A stretch of DNA of 8,354 nucleotides from a virus (lineage: Duplodnaviria > Heunggongvirae > Uroviricota > Caudoviricetes), in the IMG/VR virus record IMGVR_UViG_2671180574_000007, positions 1 through 8,354 of that record. The stretch is one strand, 5' to 3'. The translations under genes and the position numbers were made by a program. Each line of letters begins with the position of its first letter. The first letter of the stretch is position 1. This document shows positions 1-8,354 of the stretch, piece by piece. The notes below the pieces were generated by a model. That model searched no databases. It worked only from the letters and a program-made list of their open reading frames with translations, and was not told the DNA's origin.

Positions 1-122
1 GAAGCATGGGCTGAGCGGCAGTTAAAAAAGGTAACTAGGTAACAAGGTTGATTTTTCCGGAATCTGTGGTAAATTCGTCATAACGATGGGCGTTTTATGC
101 CTGACGTTAGAAGAGTTTCTAC

Positions 123-146
123 AACCCGCCGCCGAGCGGGTTTTTT
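123..146 (+). terminator. Rho-independent terminator (stem cccgc/gcggg, 6-nt loop, T6 tail)
   Basis: Hairpin 125-129/136-140 with flanking A-T pairs, followed by TTTTTT at 141-146; sits downstream of a frame-1 stop at 40-42. Confidence 0.6.
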
Positions 147-266
147 ATGACTGAAATCGCGTCAGTACAGTAAACGCGCTGGTGGCGGTGAATACCTGTC
201 TTTCAGCTTGCTGGCTTTTTCGACAAGAGTTATTGGTGTGTCACGTTAACCGGAAAAGGAAAAGAC

Positions 267-464
267 ATGCTAAAACAGCAGGATATGACAGAAACCGCCA
301 GAGTGGTGTTTAATGAATTAAGCGTTACCGAACCGGCGACAGTCGGGGAGATAGCGCAGAATACTTACCTTTCACGCGAACGCTGCCAGTTAATACTGAC
401 CCAGCTGGTTATGGCGGGTCTGGCAGACTATCAGTTCGGTTGTTACAGACGCCTTCCGCAGTGA
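267..464 (+). CDS. Small winged-helix DNA-binding protein, FaeA/PapI-like (hypothetical regulator, 65 aa)
   Basis: ATG with AGGA-type Shine-Dalgarno about 8 nt upstream; pattern VVFNEL...TVGEIAQNTYLSRERCQLILTQLVMAGL resembles PapI/FaeA-type small winged-helix regulators; intrinsic terminator overlaps the stop codon. Confidence 0.5.
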   Translation: MLKQQDMTETARVVFNELSVTEPATVGEIAQNTYLSRERCQLILTQLVMAGLADYQFGCYRRLPQ

Positions 465-476
465 AGGCTTTTTTAT
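450..476 (+). terminator. Rho-independent terminator overlapping the stop of the 65-aa ORF
   Basis: Perfect 6-bp stem gccttc(451-456)/gaaggc(463-468), 6-nt loop, then TTTTTT(469-474)ATTTG. Confidence 0.65.
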
Positions 477-493
477 TTGTGGTAAATGGGCGG

Positions 494-582
494 CTGGTGG
501 GTGTTAGGGGCACCCACCAGCCATCTGCTCATGCGTTGGGTTCACAAGCAAACCTCAGGCCCACTGCTTTGCGCAAAAGCAG
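494..582 (+). promoter_or_regulatory. Structured leader upstream of the methyltransferase gene (two stable hairpins, neither terminator-like)
   Basis: Perfect 10-bp inverted repeat ctggtgggtg/cacccaccag (494-503/511-520, 7-nt loop) and 7-bp stem ctgcttt/aaagcag (564-570/576-582); no T-run after either. Confidence 0.4.
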
Positions 583-614
583 AATGAGCCTATCAGAGAC
601 AGGCTTAATGATCC

Positions 615-1673
615 ATGCTTAATACTGTAAAAATATCCAGTTGTGAGTTAATCAACGCCGACTGCCTGGAATTTATCCGGTCGTTACCCGAAAATTCTGT
701 TGACCTGATAGTCACGGACCCGCCGTACTTTAAAGTGAAGCCTGAGGGCTGGGATAACCAGTGGAAGGGCGACGATGATTACCTGAAGTGGCTGGACCAG
801 TGTCTGGCGCAGTTCTGGCGGGTGCTGAAACCTGCCGGAAGTCTTTACCTGTTCTGTGGTCATCGCCTGGCATCTGATATCGAAATCATGATGCGTGAAC
901 GCTTCAGTGTGCTGAACCATATTATCTGGGCGAAGCCGTCCGGACGCTGGAACGGATGCAACAAGGAAAGCCTGCGGGCGTATTTCCCCGCCACAGAGCG
1001 CATTCTGTTCGCGGAACATTATCAGGGGCCGTATCGTCCGAAAGATGCCGGGTATGCGGCGAAGGGCAGTGCACTGAAACAGCATGTGATGGCCCCGCTG
1101 ATTTCTTACTTTCGTGATGCGCGAGCTGCCCTGGGGATAACGGCAAAACAGATTGCAGATGCCACAGGAAAGAAAAACATGGTGTCGCACTGGTTCAGTG
1201 CCGGTCAGTGGCAGTTGCCGAATGAAAGCGATTATCTGAAATTACAGGCGCTGTTTGCCCGGGTGGCAGAAGAGAAGCATCGGCGTGGTGAACTGGAAAA
1301 GCTCCACCACCAGCTGGTGGATACGTATACCTCACTGAACCGGCAGTATGCGGAGCTGCTGAGTGAATATAAACATCTGCGGCGGTATTTTGGCGTGACG
1401 GTGCAGGTGCCGTATACCGATGTGTGGACGCATAAACCGGTGCAGTTCTATCCCGGGAAACATCCGTGCGAAAAACCGGCAGAAATGCTGCAGCAGATAA
1501 TCAGCGCTAGCAGTCGTCCGGGTGACCTGATTGCAGATTTTTTCATGGGGTTGGGTTCGACAGTGAAAGCGGCACTGGCGCTCGGGCGTCGTGCAATTGG
1601 CGTTGAGCTGGAGACTGAACGTTTTGAGCAGACGGTTCGGGAAGTACAGGATTTAGTCAGCCAGAACGGATGA
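615..1673 (+). CDS. DNA methyltransferase, beta-class (motif IV before motif I), probable N6-adenine specificity; orphan (no adjacent restriction enzyme)
   Basis: 352-aa ORF; N-terminal LIVTDPPYF (motif IV, DPPY) and C-terminal DFFMGLGST (motif I, FxGxG AdoMet site); central insert with HTH-like/coiled-coil segment typical of a target-recognition region. Weak Shine-Dalgarno. Confidence 0.88.
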   Translation: MLNTVKISSCELINADCLEFIRSLPENSVDLIVTDPPYFKVKPEGWDNQWKGDDDYLKWLDQCLAQFWRVLKPAGSLYLFCGHRLASDIEIMMRERFSVLNHIIWAKPSGRWNGCNKESLRAYFPATERILFAEHYQGPYRPKDAGYAAKGSALKQHVMAPLISYFRDARAALGITAKQIADATGKKNMVSHWFSAGQWQLPNESDYLKLQALFARVAEEKHRRGELEKLHHQLVDTYTSLNRQYAELLSEYKHLRRYFGVTVQVPYTDVWTHKPVQFYPGKHPCEKPAEMLQQIISASSRPGDLIADFFMGLGSTVKAALALGRRAIGVELETERFEQTVREVQDLVSQNG

Positions 1674-1713
1674 TATTGAAGAATTAATTACGCGTCGTTA
1701 TTATGCGGCTCCC

Positions 1714-1789
1714 GGCCCTTTAGCTCAGTGGTGAGAGCGAGCGACTCATAATCGCTTGGTCGTTGGTTCAAACCCAACAGGGGCCACCA
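1714..1789 (+). tRNA. tRNA with anticodon CAU, tRNA-Ile2-like (lysidine-dependent AUA decoder); elongator tRNA-Met not excluded
   Basis: Hand-folded cloverleaf: acceptor 1714-1720/1779-1785 (one G-U), D-stem gctc/gagc, anticodon stem agcga/tcgct with loop cTCATAa (anticodon 1747-1749), T-arm gttgg-ttcaaac-ccaac, discriminator A, encoded CCA. Acceptor and anticodon stems resemble E. coli ileX-type tRNA from memory. Confidence 0.85.
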
Positions 1790-1797
1790 TATCTATC

Positions 1798-1836
1798 AAG
1801 GGGTTACGTTAACAGCGTGACCCCTTCGTTTTTTCT
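1798..1836 (+). terminator. Rho-independent terminator downstream of the tRNA
   Basis: 7-bp stem aaggggt(1798-1804)/acccctt(1820-1826) with structured loop, followed by cgTTTTTT (1829-1834). Confidence 0.65.
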
Positions 1837-2115
1837 AGGATACCTATAGGATACCGTGACAGAGTATAAGCAGGTATAAAAACAACAAGTTACGCAACAT
1901 CATACCTGTCATGAAACTTTAACTATCCGACATGATAGCTGGTCGATGATCACGGATAATCCGTTATGTGGATCCCCATATCGGCATCAGGCCCACCAGC
2001 GTGAAGCGTTTTTCATTTTTCGCGGGTATAAAAAATCGATGGGGCTGGCAGTCCGGAAGACGTCAGGGTACAGAGATTTGACCCGCCCCTCCCTGTGCAT
2101 GGGCACAATAAGTAA

Positions 2116-2139
2116 CCGAAGGCGGAATTCCGCCCTCGG
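2116..2139. repeat. 24-bp near-perfect palindrome (11 of 12 pairs) centred on GAATTC
   Basis: ccgaaggcggaattccgccctcgg; T-rich flank on the minus-strand side, so it could act as a weak terminator for the convergent minus-strand cluster. Confidence 0.55.
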
Positions 2140-2172
2140 TACTCACATATGAGAAACGATATTTCTTCCTCT

Positions 2173-2253
2173 GATACCCAAAATATGGGTATCACAAGTA
2201 ACCCCCAAAATCTGGGTGTTGCTCTTACTACCCAAACTACGGGTAGTTTCCGT
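2173..2253. repeat. Three tandem 27-bp units, each containing a dyad-symmetric core ACCCAAA-N4-GGGT
   Basis: Units 2173-2199, 2200-2226, 2227-2253; cores gatacccaaaatatgggtatc (perfect 8-bp arms), aacccccaaaatctgggtgtt, actacccaaactacgggtagt; centre-to-centre spacing 27 bp. Confidence 0.7.
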
Positions 2254-2265
2254 AATTTCATGGTC

Positions 2266-2285
2266 GAGTTGCAGATCTGCAACTC
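2266..2285. repeat. Perfect 20-bp palindrome centred on AGATCT
   Basis: gagttgcagatctgcaactc, 10 of 10 pairs; no U-run on either side. Confidence 0.7.
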
Positions 2286-2330
2286 ACCCACCAGCCAACG
2301 CAATTTTGCGTTATCGGGAATATCAGCAAG

Positions 2331-2618
2331 TTACCGCCGCAGCCGTTCCGGCTTCTTCCACTGGTAAGTATTTTTCGCGCTCTCCCTCCGTTGTTGAGAA
2401 CGGCGACGGTATGCCAGCAACTCAAGGACTCTTGTTCGTATGTTGCGCATATCCACGCCGTTAAGCTCAATACCGTCACGGAGCATCACCTCAGCCACCA
2501 CACGCGCGTAATTTTCAGCGGTGACTGTATCCGGCTGCGCGGCCTGTTCGTCAGCCAACTGGCTGATTCCACCAGCACAGCGGATTAATCGCAGTATTTC
2601 AGATTCGGTCATTATCAT
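2331..2618 (-). CDS. Hypothetical 95-aa protein translationally coupled to the small terminase gene; possibly a truncated remnant
   Basis: ATG at 2616-2618 overlaps the TGA of the upstream gene (ATGA coupling); Arg-rich C-terminal tail (RRRSQQRRESAKNTYQWKKPERLRR) runs into non-coding palindromic DNA; no recognisable motif. Confidence 0.45.
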   Translation of the reverse strand: MIMTESEILRLIRCAGGISQLADEQAAQPDTVTAENYARVVAEVMLRDGIELNGVDMRNIRTRVLELLAYRRRSQQRRESAKNTYQWKKPERLRR

Positions 2619-3100
2619 GCCTGTTTTGCGACCTCATTCACTACGTCATTTTTTACCATCCGGCTGATAATCTGATTACGCAAATCGTCAATAATTGACT
2701 GCACTCTGTTTACTGCCATCGGTTTAAGCCCGGCATCACGTGCCAGAATATTGGGGAGTTTTGCCAGTTCCTCGCTTACGATTTCCCCCCATATAGCCAT
2801 CTCTTTTCGCACATCATCGGCGGGTATGAGTTGCGCCGTTTCCTGTTCGAACTTGAGGCGCTCACGTTCGGACTGATACCAGGCCTTACGGTCATGTGGC
2901 TCCATTTCTTCCAGTGATGCCGGAACGGGAAGATCAAGAAAACAGGTCAGAATGTCAGTCACCCGATAGAGTTTCAGCTTGTCATGCCCTCCGGCTGGCT
3001 GGATGTTTTTCAGCCTTGCCGCCGCAGTCTGACGACATATTCCCGCTATCGCCGCCAGTTGATTAATGTTCAGCATCAGATTTTTCAGTTCTCGATCCAT
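2615..3100 (-). CDS. Terminase small subunit, lambda Nu1-like (DNA packaging protein), about 161 aa
   Basis: Start placed at the internal ATG (3098-3100) preceded by GGAG 5 nt upstream; the six-frame ORF extends to 3187 without a Shine-Dalgarno. N-terminal HTH pattern LNINQLAAIAGICRQTAAARLKN...GG..KL.LY and downstream helical region align by eye with lambda Nu1. Confidence 0.65.
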   Translation of the reverse strand: MDRELKNLMLNINQLAAIAGICRQTAAARLKNIQPAGGHDKLKLYRVTDILTCFLDLPVPASLEEMEPHDRKAWYQSERERLKFEQETAQLIPADDVRKEMAIWGEIVSEELAKLPNILARDAGLKPMAVNRVQSIIDDLRNQIISRMVKNDVVNEVAKQA

Positions 3101-3371
3101 ACCCGCTCCAGAATGTTTTAAACATGCATCTTGCGAACAACTTTCAGAAGAGTTCAAAAAATGCGCTATATGTTGAGCATAAAACAAGCAAAACTAACAT
3201 ACCAAAAATAAAAATACTTAAAATTCAATATCATATGAAGATGATGATGACGAATGAAAATGCAAAAACTAGCCTTTTTCCGCGCCGCTCCCGCCCCGCG
3301 GCAGGCCACCTCACCGGGAGGACCCACCCAAAAAAGGCGACTGTCACTATTGTTTATGCTCCATGAGCGAC

Positions 3372-3393
3372 AAAACCGCCCGCAGGCGGTTTT
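3372..3393. terminator. Bidirectional intrinsic terminator hairpin
   Basis: aaaaccgcc-cgca-ggcggtttt: 9-bp stem including A/T arms, 4-nt loop; T-run on both strands; lies about 18 nt downstream of the gpI-like stop on the minus strand. Confidence 0.65.
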
Positions 3394-3410
3394 ACATAAA
3401 ACGTTTTGTA

Positions 3411-4052
3411 TCAGCGACCAATCACCACAATCTGGCCGCCATCCCCTTCATCTGCCGTGCTGATCTCTTGCGAAATCACCCGCGACCCGACGCGCATTTC
3501 ACCGTACAGAACAGGCACAACATTGCCCTGGGCAACCATGTTATCCAGAGAGGAGAAATAGGTGTTCTGCTTACCGTTATCCGTGGTGCTGGCTGTTGCT
3601 GTGCTGGCTTTCGGTGCCAGCATCTGTGCAACACCACCAAGTGTCATCGCCGCCCCCATTGAAAAGAGAATGTCACTGAAAGCGATACTGATTCCTGGCA
3701 TCCAGATTGCCGTAGCAATCAGCGCCGCACCAAGCACCGCCTGAAACACGCCGCCACTTTTGGCACCAGCCAGACGCGGTACGATGTGGATCACGGCACC
3801 ATTTTCCAGCGGTTCATTAAGACGGGCTGATAATTCGTTTTCGCCTGTATCACGCCCGGCAATACGCACCTGATACCAACCATCGCTCAGTTTCTGACGA
3901 AACGCTGGGATCTGCATGGCCAGCGCCCGGATGGCTTCGGCCCCCGTTTTCACATGAAGATCGATGCGGCGGCCAAATCGTTGTAAATCCCCGTAAAGGC
4001 AGATGCGTGCCATGCCCGGTGACGCCAGAGGGAGTGTGTGCGTCGCTGCCAT
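3411..4052 (-). CDS. Phage lambda gpI-like tail (tip) assembly protein
   Basis: 213-aa ORF with N-terminal ubiquitin-like region, central hydrophobic Gly/Ala-rich segment and C-terminal block TTDNGKQNTYFSSLDNMVAQGNV.PVLYGEMRVGSRV.SQEISTADEG that matches lambda tail assembly protein I as recalled from memory; GAGAGG Shine-Dalgarno about 10 nt upstream. Confidence 0.6.
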   Translation of the reverse strand: MAATHTLPLASPGMARICLYGDLQRFGRRIDLHVKTGAEAIRALAMQIPAFRQKLSDGWYQVRIAGRDTGENELSARLNEPLENGAVIHIVPRLAGAKSGGVFQAVLGAALIATAIWMPGISIAFSDILFSMGAAMTLGGVAQMLAPKASTATASTTDNGKQNTYFSSLDNMVAQGNVVPVLYGEMRVGSRVISQEISTADEGDGGQIVVIGR

Positions 4053-4141
4053 TTGTCGGTATACCTCTCTCGTTTGCTCAGTTGTTCAGGAATATGGTGC
4101 GGCAGCTCGCCGCCCCACGTGTTCAAAGTACCGCCTTGTTG

Positions 4142-6055
4142 TCATGCTCCATTCGATTTCAGCAATCCACGATAATCGAGGGCCGCGACACCTGCATCTA
4201 TGCGCACCTTCCAGGCGACACCATCAACAGTAAAGCCCACCTGCTCCTCAAGATATGGCGTATCCATACCATCAAGATAAGCGACTTCTATTGTGTCCAT
4301 CCCCTTAGCTGCGGCTACATACCATTCCTTGCTATTGGCCTTATCAAGACGTGGCTCAACAATTACTTCTGCCATATCTTTCACAACGTTAATGATGCCG
4401 GGGTTCTGATTGATAGTGCCCTCATCACCAACCGGAAAGACTGATGACGATGACAGAATGGCGCGACGCGCGGCAGATTCCAGCGCGGCAGGGACCAGAA
4501 CAAAAGCAGGGGTAATATTCAGTGAGTCGCCGTTAGCATCCTCCTGGAGGCGCATCAGCTTACGGGCTTCATCAAGCCCCACCATGTCCATATCCTTCGC
4601 AATAAGATTTTTATGATCGGCATGGAATAACGCTTTACCATCCGTAAACTTGCCGTTGCTGGTTAACAGGAGATAAACCAGATTGCCAACTGTTCTGGCG
4701 GCTGCGCGTCCCATCGCCATGGGGATTGTAGTTAACTGGGTCAGGTCATCGTTGATAATGGCCTGACGGGTAACGGAAAAAATATTCCCGTACGTGGCCA
4801 GCGCAATAGGTACACCTTTATCGCTGGTGGTGATGTATTTATATTCCGCACCTTCCGGTACTTTATCCAGCTTTGAAAAACCATTCAGACCAACGCGCTT
4901 TGCTTCATGAAAGTTTGAAAGCGAACCGGTACGCGTCCATTTCTGGAACGTTTCGCCGCTGTCCTGCCAGCCTTTCAGTACAGATTTTTCAGCCCCACCA
5001 GCCAGAATATGAGAAAAATCACTGCTGCTGTGTGTAAAAGCCGCATTAACAACCTGCGAGCGATTAATAAAACCACTCACAGTGATACCACGATCAACCA
5101 GTGATGCCTGGGCCATTTCAAAAAGGCTCATCATCGCGTAAGGGTTGCCTCGTTCAGGGCGTTCATACCCAAGACGGGAATAAAGCCCCTGACGAATTGC
5201 ATCACCTGTTATGTTTCCGTTTCCGGCATAGATATGAGGCGGGGTATTTTTATTGGATGGCGTGGACTCGCGCCCCAGCTCGTTCAACAGCTTTTCACGG
5301 GCCATTTCCGGTGTACATGATGCATCTTCCAGACACGCCATTTTGATCCCGTCGTAACGACTGCCGAACAGGCTAAACACTTCACTTATTCCATTGATGC
5401 GTTTCTGTTCATTACCAGCAATATTTGCCGCTCCCTGTGGCGGTGTAATCATTCCTTTAATGGTTTCCGGCATATGTAAAAAATCTCCTGTGCGCTTCGA
5501 TTCAATTCGCGCCATTGCTCTGACGGATGGCAACAATTCATCAGCAAAACCGTGCTTAAGGCATTCTTTCCCGTCCATCCAGGTTTCATCTTCCAGCATG
5601 GCGGTAATTTCCTGTGCTGATTTGCCCGTTTTTCTGGCATAAGCAGGGACTAACACGGTTTCCACCTTATCCAGCAAATCAGCATAATCACGCATATCAC
5701 CAGCATTTCCGCCAGAGATACCCCACGGCTTATGTATCATCATCATGGCGTTTTCCGGCATCACAACACGATCGCCAGCCATTGCGACCACCGAAGCCAT
5801 TGAAGCCGCAACACCATCGATATAAACCGTAATGTCTGCCGGATGATTCCGTAGCAGGTTATAGATGGCGATGCCTTCAAACACATCACCACCTGGTGAA
5901 TGGATCCTCAGATTGATATGTGAAACATCGCCAAGGGCTTTCAGGTCTTCCGCGAACTGCTTTGCAGTAACACCGAAGCCGCCAATCTCCTCATAGATAG
6001 ATATATCCGCCGCTCCGCGAACATCCGCCGCCTTAATGGTGTACCAGCGATTCAT
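4142..6055 (-). CDS. Fusion protein: ClpP-like (S14) prohead protease N-terminal domain plus HK97-fold major capsid protein C-terminal domain
   Basis: 637 aa; N-terminal ...LRIHSPGGDVFEGIAIYN...GVAASMASVV...MMIHKPWG... carries ClpP catalytic Ser/His context; C-terminal roughly 330 aa has capsid-like architecture (motif-level assignment, weaker); ATGA overlap with upstream small ORF. Confidence 0.75.
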   Translation of the reverse strand: MNRWYTIKAADVRGAADISIYEEIGGFGVTAKQFAEDLKALGDVSHINLRIHSPGGDVFEGIAIYNLLRNHPADITVYIDGVAASMASVVAMAGDRVVMPENAMMMIHKPWGISGGNAGDMRDYADLLDKVETVLVPAYARKTGKSAQEITAMLEDETWMDGKECLKHGFADELLPSVRAMARIESKRTGDFLHMPETIKGMITPPQGAANIAGNEQKRINGISEVFSLFGSRYDGIKMACLEDASCTPEMAREKLLNELGRESTPSNKNTPPHIYAGNGNITGDAIRQGLYSRLGYERPERGNPYAMMSLFEMAQASLVDRGITVSGFINRSQVVNAAFTHSSSDFSHILAGGAEKSVLKGWQDSGETFQKWTRTGSLSNFHEAKRVGLNGFSKLDKVPEGAEYKYITTSDKGVPIALATYGNIFSVTRQAIINDDLTQLTTIPMAMGRAAARTVGNLVYLLLTSNGKFTDGKALFHADHKNLIAKDMDMVGLDEARKLMRLQEDANGDSLNITPAFVLVPAALESAARRAILSSSSVFPVGDEGTINQNPGIINVVKDMAEVIVEPRLDKANSKEWYVAAAKGMDTIEVAYLDGMDTPYLEEQVGFTVDGVAWKVRIDAGVAALDYRGLLKSNGA

Positions 6056-6261
6056 TGTTCCCCCACCGATGCAAAACCATTCTGATTAAGCCAGGTGTTT
6101 ACGGCATGTCTGACAATCTGCGCCACACCTGGTAATGGTTGGTCAGGATGATGATTTATATGGTCGATCCTGTACTGCTTAAGGCGCATAACGGTCTGCG
6201 CATCCAGATGAACGGAACCACCTCTGGTATCACCTGTGTTCAGGTCATTAATACAACTCAC
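6052..6261 (-). CDS. Hypothetical 69-aa protein, first gene of the capsid operon
   Basis: GTG start with strong GAGGAAG Shine-Dalgarno 5 nt upstream; stop overlaps the fusion-gene ATG; AT-rich putative promoter region upstream (6262-6360). Confidence 0.55.
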   Translation of the reverse strand: MSCINDLNTGDTRGGSVHLDAQTVMRLKQYRIDHINHHPDQPLPGVAQIVRHAVNTWLNQNGFASVGEQ

Positions 6262-6361
6262 AGCAACTTCCTCTGACTGACTAAACTATGCACATTATTG
6301 ATCTATAAAAGTGGTAAATAAACATATTTCTATCATAAAAACAGATTAATTAGATTCAGAC

Positions 6362-6387
6362 ACAAAAAAGCCGGATTTCTCCGGCTT
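6362..6387 (-). terminator. Rho-independent terminator on the minus strand between the origin and the capsid operon
   Basis: 8-bp stem aagccgga/tccggctt (6368-6375/6380-6387), 4-nt loop; on the minus strand followed by TTTTTTGTG. Confidence 0.7.
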
Positions 6388-6514
6388 CTGTCACTCGTTG
6401 CTTAAAACGGTATGTTATCCCCGTACGGATCATCATTCCCCGCCTGTTGTTTTGGTGTGCTTCGCTGTCATAGGCTTTATCTCACAGCAGTAAATTAAAA
6501 TTTTTGCGTTTTAA

Positions 6515-6745
6515 CCCTTCACCTGTTCACCTTTTGATATTTTCTCTATTAATTCATAATGTTAAGGGGTGAACAGTTTCAAAAAAACTATTCACCAACT
6601 GTTCACCACTGTTCACCCTTGAAGCTCAATAAACAATCAAAAAGGTGAACAGTGAATAGTTTGGTGAACAGTTCATAAATAACTGCTCACCCTATAATAT
6701 ACTGATATAAAAGATATTTATGACAGGGTGAACAGTGGTGAACAG
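6515..6745. repeat. Iteron cluster: putative P4-type replication origin (octamer TGTTCACC / GGTGAACA)
   Basis: Perfect octamers at 6524-6531(+), 6568-6575(-), 6600-6607(+), 6610-6617(+), 6644-6651(-), 6663-6670(-), 6727-6734(-), 6737-6744(-), plus degenerate copies (6517-6523, 6590-6596, 6652-6659, 6684-6691); AT-rich flanks; directly downstream of the primase stop. Confidence 0.8.
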
Positions 6746-6758
6746 TTATTCCATAAGT

Positions 6759-8354
6759 TTAATTTTTGCTATCGTCATTAGTGACCGATACACATGATGG
6801 CATCCAGTCTTCTGATTCCTCCGTCAGTGTCACGTTTGAACGCAAACCGTGCTTCGTTTTCCGTTTCATATACTCCCTGCCATATTCCGCCATTGCCCCC
6901 GGCATATCTTTACCGAAGCGCGTCAGTGTTACAGGTTTACCAAACCCATGTGCCCTCATATAAGCCAGATAGGCATGATAGAGATACCTGCGTGGGCTGA
7001 ATGGCACAATTTCAGCATTACCCACTAACAGGCCATCACACATTACCGACGCCATGAGATAGCCGCAGAAGTCCACCAGCGAATCCCCCTCTCGCTTTAT
7101 CGCCAGTGCTTCTTCAGATTTCTGCTGCTCATATAACAGGCGTCTGGCTTCGTCCTGGTCAGCAAACCGTGTAAGCAGATGGCGAATCACTACCGCCAGC
7201 TCACCTTCTATTTTTTCCGCCAGCATTGGATCACGTTCGTTCTCCGGTACAACTTCCGAAAAATTGAATATCACCCGACGACGTGAGATCCCCCCACTGC
7301 GGTCACTGAATGACATGGCGTTATTGTTAACCGCCAGCACTACTGCCGGAATACGCGTTGAGTAGGGGGCTTTGTGTTTCGGGTCAATTGCCACCTTGTC
7401 ACCGCCTGTAATAGCCTTAATCCCTGCCCCATCACCAGCGTAGCGGGTCATATCCGGCATGATAATCAGCGAAAAGCCAACCACTAACGCGCGTTCCCTT
7501 GCATCTTCCAGCGCCTTCATGCTTGCCGATACTGTGTTGGCCTTACCCGCCAGCATGGTGCAAATCTCCGCCATCACGCTTTTACCACTTCCCCCTGGAC
7601 CTGTTACCTCAATGAATAACTGCCAGTCGTACCGGTTCGCCAGCACCATGAATAATGCAGCCAGTACGCGATCCGCCTTGCGGTCATTCTCAGCCACCGA
7701 ACGGCGTAACCACTTCCAGAAATTCGGCGCATGTGTTGCCAGCGTTTCCCCCTCTGCTGGTGGGCTGAAAGGTAATTCACTGGCAATTAACAACCAGTCG
7801 TTTTTGTTATGCTCCCGAAAATTACCTGTTCTGGTATCAAATACCCCGTTACTGAATCCAATCAGGTTACGGGCTGTATTCCCCATAACAGGCAAACTTA
7901 ACTTCATGGTATCGACCGCCGATTTAATGGCGTTCTGCGAATAGCTGATCTCCGCATCAATGAAAATCTGCGCCATAGCTCGCTGTAATTCTTTATCCTG
8001 TACTGGCTCCCATACAACGCCGTTGTAATGGTGAACAGTGTCAGAGTCAGCATGAATCGCCAGTTCACCGCCATAATGTGCCAGGAGAACTTCGCCGCGT
8101 TGACTTGCTCCCATCTGGTTAAGCGCCAGTGATGAAGCGTTATCGTCTTTTACCCGCTCTTTTTTCTTTACAGGCAGTTCAACTACCTTTTTCTTTTCCG
8201 CCAGCTCTGCCCGTTCACGTTCCAGATATTCACGCCAGTTCTCCCGTTTCTGGCTGTGCATTCCTTCAGGGTAATAATCAGCATCCCTGACACCTGCCTC
8301 TGCCAGTTTCTGCCCGATGGTATTAACAAGCCCCGGACGCAATAACCCCGCCTG
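6759..8354 (-). CDS. Primase/helicase of the phage-plasmid P4 alpha family (C-terminal part; N-terminus beyond the window end)
   Basis: Reading frame stays open to the window edge (the 8342 start in the ORF track is a TTG, not the true start); Walker A GPGGSGKS; stop TAA at 6759-6761; followed by matching iterons. Confidence 0.85.
   Translation of the reverse strand, partial: QAGLLRPGLVNTIGQKLAEAGVRDADYYPEGMHSQKRENWREYLERERAELAEKKKVVELPVKKKERVKDDNASSLALNQMGASQRGEVLLAHYGGELAIHADSDTVHHYNGVVWEPVQDKELQRAMAQIFIDAEISYSQNAIKSAVDTMKLSLPVMGNTARNLIGFSNGVFDTRTGNFREHNKNDWLLIASELPFSPPAEGETLATHAPNFWKWLRRSVAENDRKADRVLAALFMVLANRYDWQLFIEVTGPGGSGKSVMAEICTMLAGKANTVSASMKALEDARERALVVGFSLIIMPDMTRYAGDGAGIKAITGGDKVAIDPKHKAPYSTRIPAVVLAVNNNAMSFSDRSGGISRRRVIFNFSEVVPENERDPMLAEKIEGELAVVIRHLLTRFADQDEARRLLYEQQKSEEALAIKREGDSLVDFCGYLMASVMCDGLLVGNAEIVPFSPRRYLYHAYLAYMRAHGFGKPVTLTRFGKDMPGAMAEYGREYMKRKTKHGLRSNVTLTEESEDWMPSCVSVTNDDSKN

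Follow-up and report, generated by a model that had tools for sequence, protein, structure and literature searches.

A phage-borne adenine methyltransferase gene, its winged-helix partner gene and a conserved structured leader in a predicted Q-dependent late operon of a lambdoid prophage

We analysed a DNA stretch of 8,354 nucleotides (nt), hereafter the window, which corresponds to positions 1 to 8,354 of the Caudoviricetes record IMGVR_UViG_2671180574_000007. Gene order and signals suggest that the late operon of a lambdoid prophage starts with the two genes in the segment 267–1673, one for a 65-amino-acid (aa) winged-helix protein and one for a DNA adenine methyltransferase, with a structured leader between them. 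The explanation that we favour as a whole, in which a late-operon cassette carries a silent methylase, is opened by read-through under the antiterminator Q and contains a conserved leader hairpin, is probably correct. An earlier note on this DNA had instead seen a FaeA/PapI-like regulator beside an orphan adenine methyltransferase, possibly forming a regulated anti-restriction or epigenetic module. The methylase itself is of a known kind; the analysis assigns it to the predicted late operon and defines the conserved leader and the recurrent partner gene. The features of the region, all on the plus strand, are as follows.

1–42: 3' end of a Q antiterminator gene, last 13 codons (ending in EAWAERQLKKVTR and the stop codon)
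48–90: lambda-type late promoter PR' with a qut/pause-like box (TTGATT 48–53, TAAATT 70–75, AACGATGGG 82–90)
123–148: tR'-like intrinsic terminator (AACCCGC…GCGGGTT, then TTTTAT; terminator scan)
267–464: predicted winged-helix protein gene, 65 aa, PHROG 331 (function unknown; match at E=1.4e-37)
451–475: P0 terminator hairpin (GCCTTC/GAAGGC 451–468, then TTTTTT; terminator scan), overlapping the stop codon TGA (462–464) of the small open reading frame (ORF)
476–548: late-leader hairpin of three stacked helices, 23 pairs, from covariation
476–548: its outer helix, TTTGTGG 476–482 / TCACAAG 542–548
486–532: its middle helix, ATGGGC 486–491 / GCTCAT 527–532
492–522: its top helix, a perfect 12-bp stem, 492–503 / 511–522
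487–563: alternative pairing TGGGC 487–491 / GCCCA 559–563, closing a junction that includes a helix at about 524–529 / 547–552 (RNAalifold)
564–607: two small methylase-specific hairpins, CTGCTTT 564–570 / AAAGCAG 576–582 and TGAGCCT 585–591 / AGGCTTA 601–607
615–1673: beta-class N6-adenine DNA methyltransferase (PF01555), probably of the M.EcoGI/M.EcoGII group

The first 42 nt of the window were collinear with the gene for a 273-aa 'antitermination protein' of E. coli prophages, which carries PF03589 (Antiterm). The promoter that follows reads TTGATT-16-TAAATT-cgtcat-AACGATGGG, compared with TTGACT-17-TAAATT-tgactc-AACGATGGG in lambda, so that the −10 hexamer and the downstream box match those of lambda PR'. 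We take the lambda AACGATGGG box to be the pause/qut element. A GC-rich hairpin directly followed by a U-run, as expected of an intrinsic terminator, was found at 123–148 and at 451–475; the terminator scan did not report the 492–522 hairpin, after which comes ATCTGCTC. A same-strand Q gene, a PR' with its qut/pause element and then terminators follow one another as in a lambdoid late operon. Shiga toxin (Stx)-converting phages and prophages, the latter present in 3,667 of 5,426 complete E. coli genomes, matched positions 1–1790 with 93–97% identity. In all of them Q is followed by the small ORF, the methylase, ileZ-argN-argO and finally stx or lysis genes. Homology to other phages starts at the tR'-like terminator, whose hairpin also precedes the module in the Stx2c phage. 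Unrelated Q families lie upstream of the module in Salmonella, Photorhabdus, Xenorhabdus, Providencia and Buttiauxella. A tblastn search with four Q types detected Q at 23 of 66 loci, a figure lowered by poor sensitivity; Pfam was hence applied to a sample, in which the nearest upstream gene belonged to a Q family at five of six distant loci.

PR' is constitutive, and its transcripts end at tR' until Q acts (PMC7547250). From this background and the architecture of the window we infer Q-dependent read-through. PR' (48–75) would fire constitutively, and in the lysogen its transcripts would end at the tR'-like terminator (123–148); any leak-through would meet the second terminator (451–475) and then the long three-helix hairpin (476–548), and a toxic, promiscuous methylase of the M.EcoGI/II group would thereby be kept silent. 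Upon induction, Q would load at the lambda-like qut box and the polymerase would read through, and the winged-helix protein and the methylase would be made together with the late genes. The enzyme may then methylate adenines in phage DNA, replicating or packaged, almost regardless of sequence, and this methylation would protect the progeny from restriction in the next host. The hairpin presumably acts in cis on the late transcript, either in back-up termination and pausing or in processing and stabilisation. The earlier note had assigned the small gene a terminator of its own. The hairpin at 451–475 and its T-run are present as described; they are better explained as part of the tandem hairpins of lambdoid late operons, which Q-modified polymerase reads through. 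Nearly all Enterobacteriaceae relatives, even ones that lack the small ORF, keep a hairpin at this position, with plus-strand U.G wobbles.

The RNA running from PR' to the first terminator (82–148) would be about 66 nt long, which makes it a positional analogue of lambda 6S RNA and StxS. We compared the region with known prophage small RNAs. The 66-nt HnrS of enterohaemorrhagic E. coli (EcOnc10-12) maps near cos and not at the module, and the other EcOnc sites checked map near genes after the tRNAs, not on the leader. For lambda LPR2, the probe position lies upstream of, and not on, the lambda hairpin described below.

The METHYLTRANSFERASE gene product (615–1673) matched PF01555 at 144 bits (cut-off 26.7; E=7.9e-42). 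Its DPPY motif (residues 35–38) precedes FMGLG (about 310–314, near the C-terminus), and DPPY before FxGxG is the beta-class order. No endonuclease gene is adjacent to the methylase, whose neighbours are Q and a tRNA, in agreement with the earlier description of an orphan enzyme. The protein shares 95% identity with the phage 1720a-02 enzyme, which has been called very similar to M.EcoGII and M.EcoGI (PMC5778455). These two are non-specific, prophage-borne, unexpressed in the lysogen and deleterious when expressed, and are thought to switch on at induction, as the prophage excises (PMC5778455). The late-operon position of the window gene fits that suggestion. Through its 1720a-02 relative, the window methylase appears to belong to this known promiscuous group, and this allele would be expected to have the same specificity. 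The exact protein occurs very widely, Shigella sonnei being one example.

The leader between the two genes proved to be strongly conserved. Over 477–614 (about 140 nt before the start codon), mean column identity was 0.82 among 43 loci whose methylases are 61–97% identical; this is comparable to the first and second codon positions (0.79 and 0.85) and far from the third (0.465). A covariance model built from 45 leaders, with about 0.6–0.7 Mb scanned per search, gave one match per locus, on the plus strand only and always abutting the methylase. When a leader pattern was searched for blind to genes, the methylase start lay 129–133 nt downstream in 116 of 120 instances. The RNA of positions 440–640 folded at −76.6 kcal/mol (z = −4.4), and none of 200 shuffles was equally stable. 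Rfam 15 gave no plus-strand match over the leader of the window at E<=1, and no promoter was found inside the leader of the window or of two typical relatives. The leader was also considered as coding sequence; the overlapping 60-aa ORF (440–622) is kept neither in frame nor in sequence across genera.

In the three-helix hairpin, 98.6% of cells were paired across 92 distinct sequences. All single-side changes were G.U-compatible and work on the plus strand only, none of 500 shuffles reached its covariation score, and in Providencia leaders the top stem is replaced by a compensated one. The perfect hairpin that the earlier note had seen in this leader is thus its top helix, with a stem of 12 bp (492–503 / 511–522) and not of 10; the second hairpin it had named is present at 564–570 / 576–582, and a third follows at about 585–607. 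The two small hairpins had 88% and 82% of their cells paired. Conservation above neutral, pairs kept by compensation or wobble, and strand asymmetry all point to a structured RNA, read with the caution that the sequences are related, that one region carries an opposite-strand signal and that the alignment was fitted to the model. From its conservation and covariation we conclude, at the level of sequence, that the leader is under strong selection and is structured, as had been proposed. Our first model, a three-way junction of helices P1, P2 and P3, was 88% paired with 14 doubly changed pairs, a result equalled by none of 500 shuffles; one of its helices had systematic C.A mismatches, and it has been largely superseded by the three-helix hairpin.

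A mini-ORF (486–587) begins at an ATG in the 5' strand of the hairpin and contains two adjacent Trp codons. Most relatives have MGGWWVL and stop, Photorhabdus has MDGWWS and stop, and the window version is 33 aa long. Conservation fails in Providencia and in most Xenorhabdus, and the mini-ORF therefore probably arises incidentally from the stem sequence.

The leader model also matched the late regions of three well-known phages: lambda at 45,017–45,129 (1218–1330 of our locus L205; 20.8 bits), HK022 at 37,098–37,210 (7099–7211 of L217; 18.9 bits) and P22 at 38,077–38,208 (4078–4209 of L218; 18.5 bits). Each match was the top one of its locus, lay on the late strand and fell between tR' and the holin gene. 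Parsing by hand recovered the same three helices in all three phages with compensatory differences, both in the outer helix (CGUGA/UCACG against UGUGA/UCACA) and in the middle helix (GCGGGU/GCCCGU or AUGGGU/GCCCAU against AUGGGC/GCUCAU), and the top stems of the phage versions are wholly different. Lambda and P22 have the loop sequence GCGCUAACA in common despite their different stems. No feature is annotated at the hairpin in the lambda, HK022 and P22 records, and Rfam gave no match in their late regions. Tandem late terminators of lambda, reportedly described by Luk and Szybalski in 1983, may cover the hairpin site. Neither the small protein nor the methylase is encoded at the hairpin site in these phages, so the large hairpin is better explained by late-operon architecture than by a link to the methylase. 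By sequence comparison, the 5' hairpin of the leader apparently belongs to a conserved, undescribed RNA hairpin family common to lambda, HK022 and P22, and is in that light not a methylase-specific invention. A U-tract follows the top helix in lambda (GUUUU) but not in P22 or the window; as it is not conserved between phages, termination is probably not the conserved role of the hairpin.

The 3' half of the leader is different in this respect: the hairpins at 564–607 are absent from the lambda, P22 and HK022 versions. The methylase start has no Shine-Dalgarno sequence at normal spacing, and its AUG sits between the hairpin at 585–607 and one at 624–641 inside the gene. Third-position identity was 0.86 in methylase codons 1–10, against 0.41–0.59 further on. 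This 3' half and the first 30 nt of the coding sequence are methylase-specific; the missing Shine-Dalgarno sequence and the start codon between two hairpins suggest that they limit translation.

Several details of the start region may be added. The first ten codons (615–644) are almost invariant at synonymous sites. The small hairpin within them pairs ACTG (624–627) with CAGT (638–641) and reads ACUGU…ACAGU in most relatives. A GATC at 609–612, just upstream of the start, hardly varies between genera (CTGATCTATG; the window has AATGATCCATG).

These properties could also mean that the entire leader is a methylase-specific RNA switch, similar to a riboswitch or attenuator, in which the long hairpin exchanges with the three-way junction (487–491/559–563 plus the inner helix) and so lets a signal such as S-adenosylmethionine or S-adenosylhomocysteine, temperature or a protein control translation or read-through. 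The alternative pairing and the middle helix are mutually exclusive and each is conserved. An inner pair of the junction covaries (CG 31, UA 30, AU 20), and its closing helix shows one double compensation (A-U in L012). The very strong conservation of the 3' half and of the first ten codons, the start codon without Shine-Dalgarno sequence between hairpins and the absence of any matching Rfam family would all suit such a switch. We nevertheless think a methylase-specific switch unlikely. No invariant core resembling a ligand pocket was identified, the junction fold was not seen in lambda, P22 or HK022, its mismatches resemble wobbles of the opposite strand, the plus-strand minimum-energy folds prefer the long hairpin, and only one compensatory event supports the closing helix. 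Because part of the alternative pairing still covaries, a two-state element within the leader is possible.

The gene upstream of the leader was then compared with known families. The small ORF begins with ATG, 6 nt downstream of AAGGA, and profile searching returned 408 homologues at E<=0.001, all enterobacterial among the matches listed. Its frame is kept down to about 40% identity in Escherichia, Salmonella, Klebsiella, Citrobacter, Photorhabdus, Xenorhabdus, Providencia and Morganella, and variation is highest at third codon positions. These results, with the PHROG 331 match, bear out the view that the ORF is a real and conserved gene. The AlphaFold model has a pLDDT (predicted local distance difference test score) of 93 and winged helix-turn-helix topology. 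Pfam gave only generic winged-helix matches below threshold (TrmB, E=0.0026), and the database names 'TrmB family' and 'DprA-like winged helix' rest on such sub-threshold evidence. In Foldseek comparisons with the PDB, the best structural neighbours were dimerisation domains of O-methyltransferases, OhrR/MarR, IclR and SelB; comparison with viral structures likewise gave generic winged-helix matches.

The FaeA/PapI label did not survive these searches. The hidden Markov model assignment of the protein was PHROG 331, and FaeA (PF04703) did not match it at E<=1 in Pfam. FaeA was also absent from the 25 most often matched of the 38 families that 30 diverse homologues hit at E<=1. PapI was not recovered from the PDB at E<=10 by a profile of the small-protein family, nor was it among the top 50 PDB structural neighbours of the model. 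The neighbours of the small ORF were Q, methylase and tRNAs at every locus examined, with no fimbrial operon. Homology to FaeA/PapI is not supported by the Pfam searches (query and 30 homologues), the PDB profile search and Foldseek, and on its predicted fold the protein is a minimal generic winged-helix protein. The idea of a methylation-dependent epigenetic switch depended on the PapI/FaeA relationship and is unsupported without it. The protein could regulate the leader, bind an RNA hairpin, read methylated DNA or be an unrelated passenger.

That the small gene sits immediately upstream of the methylase was confirmed well beyond the window: it holds in 61 of 77 species-level loci and in 111 of 120 viral-contig instances that had been found by the leader pattern alone. 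The pair therefore recurs in other genomes, and the earlier proposal of a coupled gene pair, for which a lack of co-occurrence would have been fatal, stands in this respect. The remaining 16 loci have leader and methylase without the small ORF. Conversely, an upstream small ORF, its terminator and the initial ~55 nt of the leader precede different cargo in E. coli O111:H8 (L216, 11928–12260), in the viral contig L148 and in Sakai Sp4 (L214, 1344–1804). The winged-helix homologue was confirmed in L216 and L148, and Sp4 has an upstream small ORF. The alternative cargo is an AraC-like helix-turn-helix gene in L216 and Sp4, with its own promoter (TTGATG…TATAAT) in L216, and the recombination joint lies right after GCTTATG. 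The pairing of small ORF and methylase is thus usual, not obligatory. In Photorhabdus and Xenorhabdus (L048–L085), the small ORF and the methylase are kept and the leader is shorter, about 95 nt; it consists of GUGAAAUG followed by one hairpin, often with a U-run and so terminator-like, and matched the leader model weakly (19–24 bits) or not at all.

Such frequent pairing raises the question of whether the small protein is a dedicated methylase controller, resembling restriction-modification C proteins, or PapI in logic, whose dimer would bind the inverted repeat 492–522 as a DNA operator, or the corresponding RNA hairpin, and so time or limit the methylase. Besides the co-occurrence, which extends down to about 40% protein identity, this would agree with the confident winged-helix model, with the perfect inverted repeat of the window and with the fact that some structural neighbours bind RNA hairpins as winged helices (SelB). 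As DNA, however, the repeat is imperfect in most relatives, where transitions keep only RNA G.U pairing. Leader and methylase persist without the small ORF in the 16 loci mentioned and the small ORF persists before the AraC-like gene, the homologous hairpins of lambda, HK022 and P22 lack the protein at that place, and there is no similarity to C proteins or PapI. A dedicated controller is therefore quite unlikely, and we place it after the RNA switch.

Two further explanations fare worse. The conserved sequence might act as DNA, either as Chi (GCTGGTGG, 493–500) or as a recombination joint that shapes lambdoid mosaicism. The invariant 5' arm of the hairpin does hold Chi, the plus-strand copy is kept in most relatives, the window has Chi on both strands (493–500 on the plus and 514–521 on the minus strand), and mosaic joints lie on both sides of the element, upstream at P0 and just after GCTTATG. 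Yet Chi is broken in at least nine distinct relatives, by T to A or C changes that the RNA helix tolerates; the stems of Providencia and lambda are fully different, compensated and free of Chi, and conservation reaches far past 8 bp, which makes a role as DNA very improbable. Least credible of all is a cis-antisense RNA, comparable to those of type I toxin-antitoxin systems, that would start in the methylase start region, cross the leader and repress the toxic gene: one helix is near-perfect on the minus strand only (228 C.A/A.C cells against 5 G.U cells), minus-strand minimum-energy folds form a neat three-way junction and the constrained synonymous sites of codons 1–10 could hide a promoter, but no minus-strand promoter was found in the window or two typical relatives, plus-strand-only wobbles prevail in the closing and top helices (P1 and P2; 37 against 8) and in the 585–607 hairpin (P5; 103 against 8), one top-helix pair is UA 42 and UG 36, and the 'minus-strand' helix shares segments with the outer and middle helices of the plus strand, which account for these segments better.

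We returned to the late-operon explanation and considered the points that weigh against it. The matches in lambda, HK022 and P22 are weak, at about 19–21 bits; the roughly calibrated model puts their E values at about 5e-5 to 3e-4. The large hairpin of the window is followed by ATCTGCTC and has no U-tract, and the U-tract is not conserved between phages. The exclusive second pairing has covariation of its own, and its mismatches are mostly C.A/A.C, that is, G.U on the opposite strand; the structure model is thus incomplete. The link to M.EcoGII runs through the 1720a-02 enzyme, and few substitutions can change specificity. Finally, the small ORF co-occurs with the methylase in 79–92% of cases, which suggests a functional link that the late-operon explanation leaves aside.

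A more ambitious version can be put forward only tentatively, and we regard it as rather doubtful. The three-helix hairpin would be an unrecognised cis RNA module of lambdoid late operons, lambda included, needed for late expression through processing, stabilisation or read-through control; at this locus it would be joined by a methylase-specific switch and by a dedicated winged-helix partner that might bind RNA hairpins or recognise methylated adenine, and together they would gate a toxic, promiscuous methyltransferase. M.EcoGII-type enzymes are widely used tools, and the way in which a phage silences and then deploys such a toxic enzyme has been undescribed. If confirmed, the hairpin of lambda, HK022 and P22 would be an additional conserved RNA element in a regulatory region that is among the best studied in biology. 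In many Shiga-toxin phages the module lies just upstream of stx, so modulation of read-through there would bear on toxin expression.

Downstream of the methylase, the window contains a tRNA gene and part of an integrated element.

1714–1789, plus strand: tRNA with CAU anticodon (phage ileZ type), chimeric (ARAGORN, Rfam)
1790–8354, minus strand: left part of an integrated phage satellite, outside the module (Pfam: DUF1441 protein, tail-assembly-like protein, ClpP-capsid fusion, D5/P4-type primase)

Alignment indicated that the 5' half of the tRNA is of the phage ileZ type and the 3' half of the satellite or chromosomal ileX type, and phage homology ends exactly at the tRNA 3' end. The sequence downstream of the 5' half matches an 11-kb satellite that elsewhere lies at the chromosomal ileX (strain F1140). 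Satellites of this kind (1714–8354 in the window, 13002–23550 in L216 and 8935–19771 in L003) are about 10–11 kb long and encode an integrase, an Icd-like protein, a P4/D5-type primase, a ClpP-capsid fusion and a DUF1441 protein. In E. coli O111:H8 the same family lies between ileZ and argN of another lambdoid prophage. The occurrence of the family in a prophage ileZ indicates that a phage-borne tRNA is used as the attachment site and that the late operon is split; in the window, the insertion parts PR' and the methylase from the remaining late operon. The exact junction of the window was found in no complete E. coli genome of the collection.

Among known systems, PapI and FaeA (PF04703, fimbrial phase variation), whose partner is Lrp and whose target sites contain GATC, resemble the small protein in being small (about 65–77 aa), single-domain winged-helix proteins, and differ in that no fimbrial operon lies near the window ORF. 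The C proteins of restriction-modification systems share the arrangement of a small gene of DNA-binding type just upstream of a modification or restriction gene, plausibly delaying a dangerous enzyme. C proteins, however, have an Xre-type helix-turn-helix, C-box operators and a partner endonuclease, whereas the window shows a predicted winged-helix fold, no endonuclease and a non-obligatory pairing. The RNase III sites of T7 and the put RNA of HK022 are alike by analogy only, as stacked helices with internal loops, of about 75 nt, acting in cis on a polycistronic phage transcript. The put sites lie in early operons, whereas the three-helix hairpin of HK022 lies in the late leader. M.EcoGII and M.EcoGI, from E. 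coli O104:H4 prophages, share with the window enzyme the beta-class motif order, a length of about 350 aa and the prophage location, but no upstream small gene, leader or late-operon position is described for them (PMC5778455). Another likeness is to the late region of lambda, with PR', qut, 6S RNA/tR' and later terminators, and with StxS as the counterpart in Stx phages (PMC7547250). Both have the same −10 hexamer and pause box, Q immediately upstream, a short RNA from PR' to the first terminator and several hairpins before the first long late gene; the window differs in having two extra genes between tR' and the tRNA and lysis genes.

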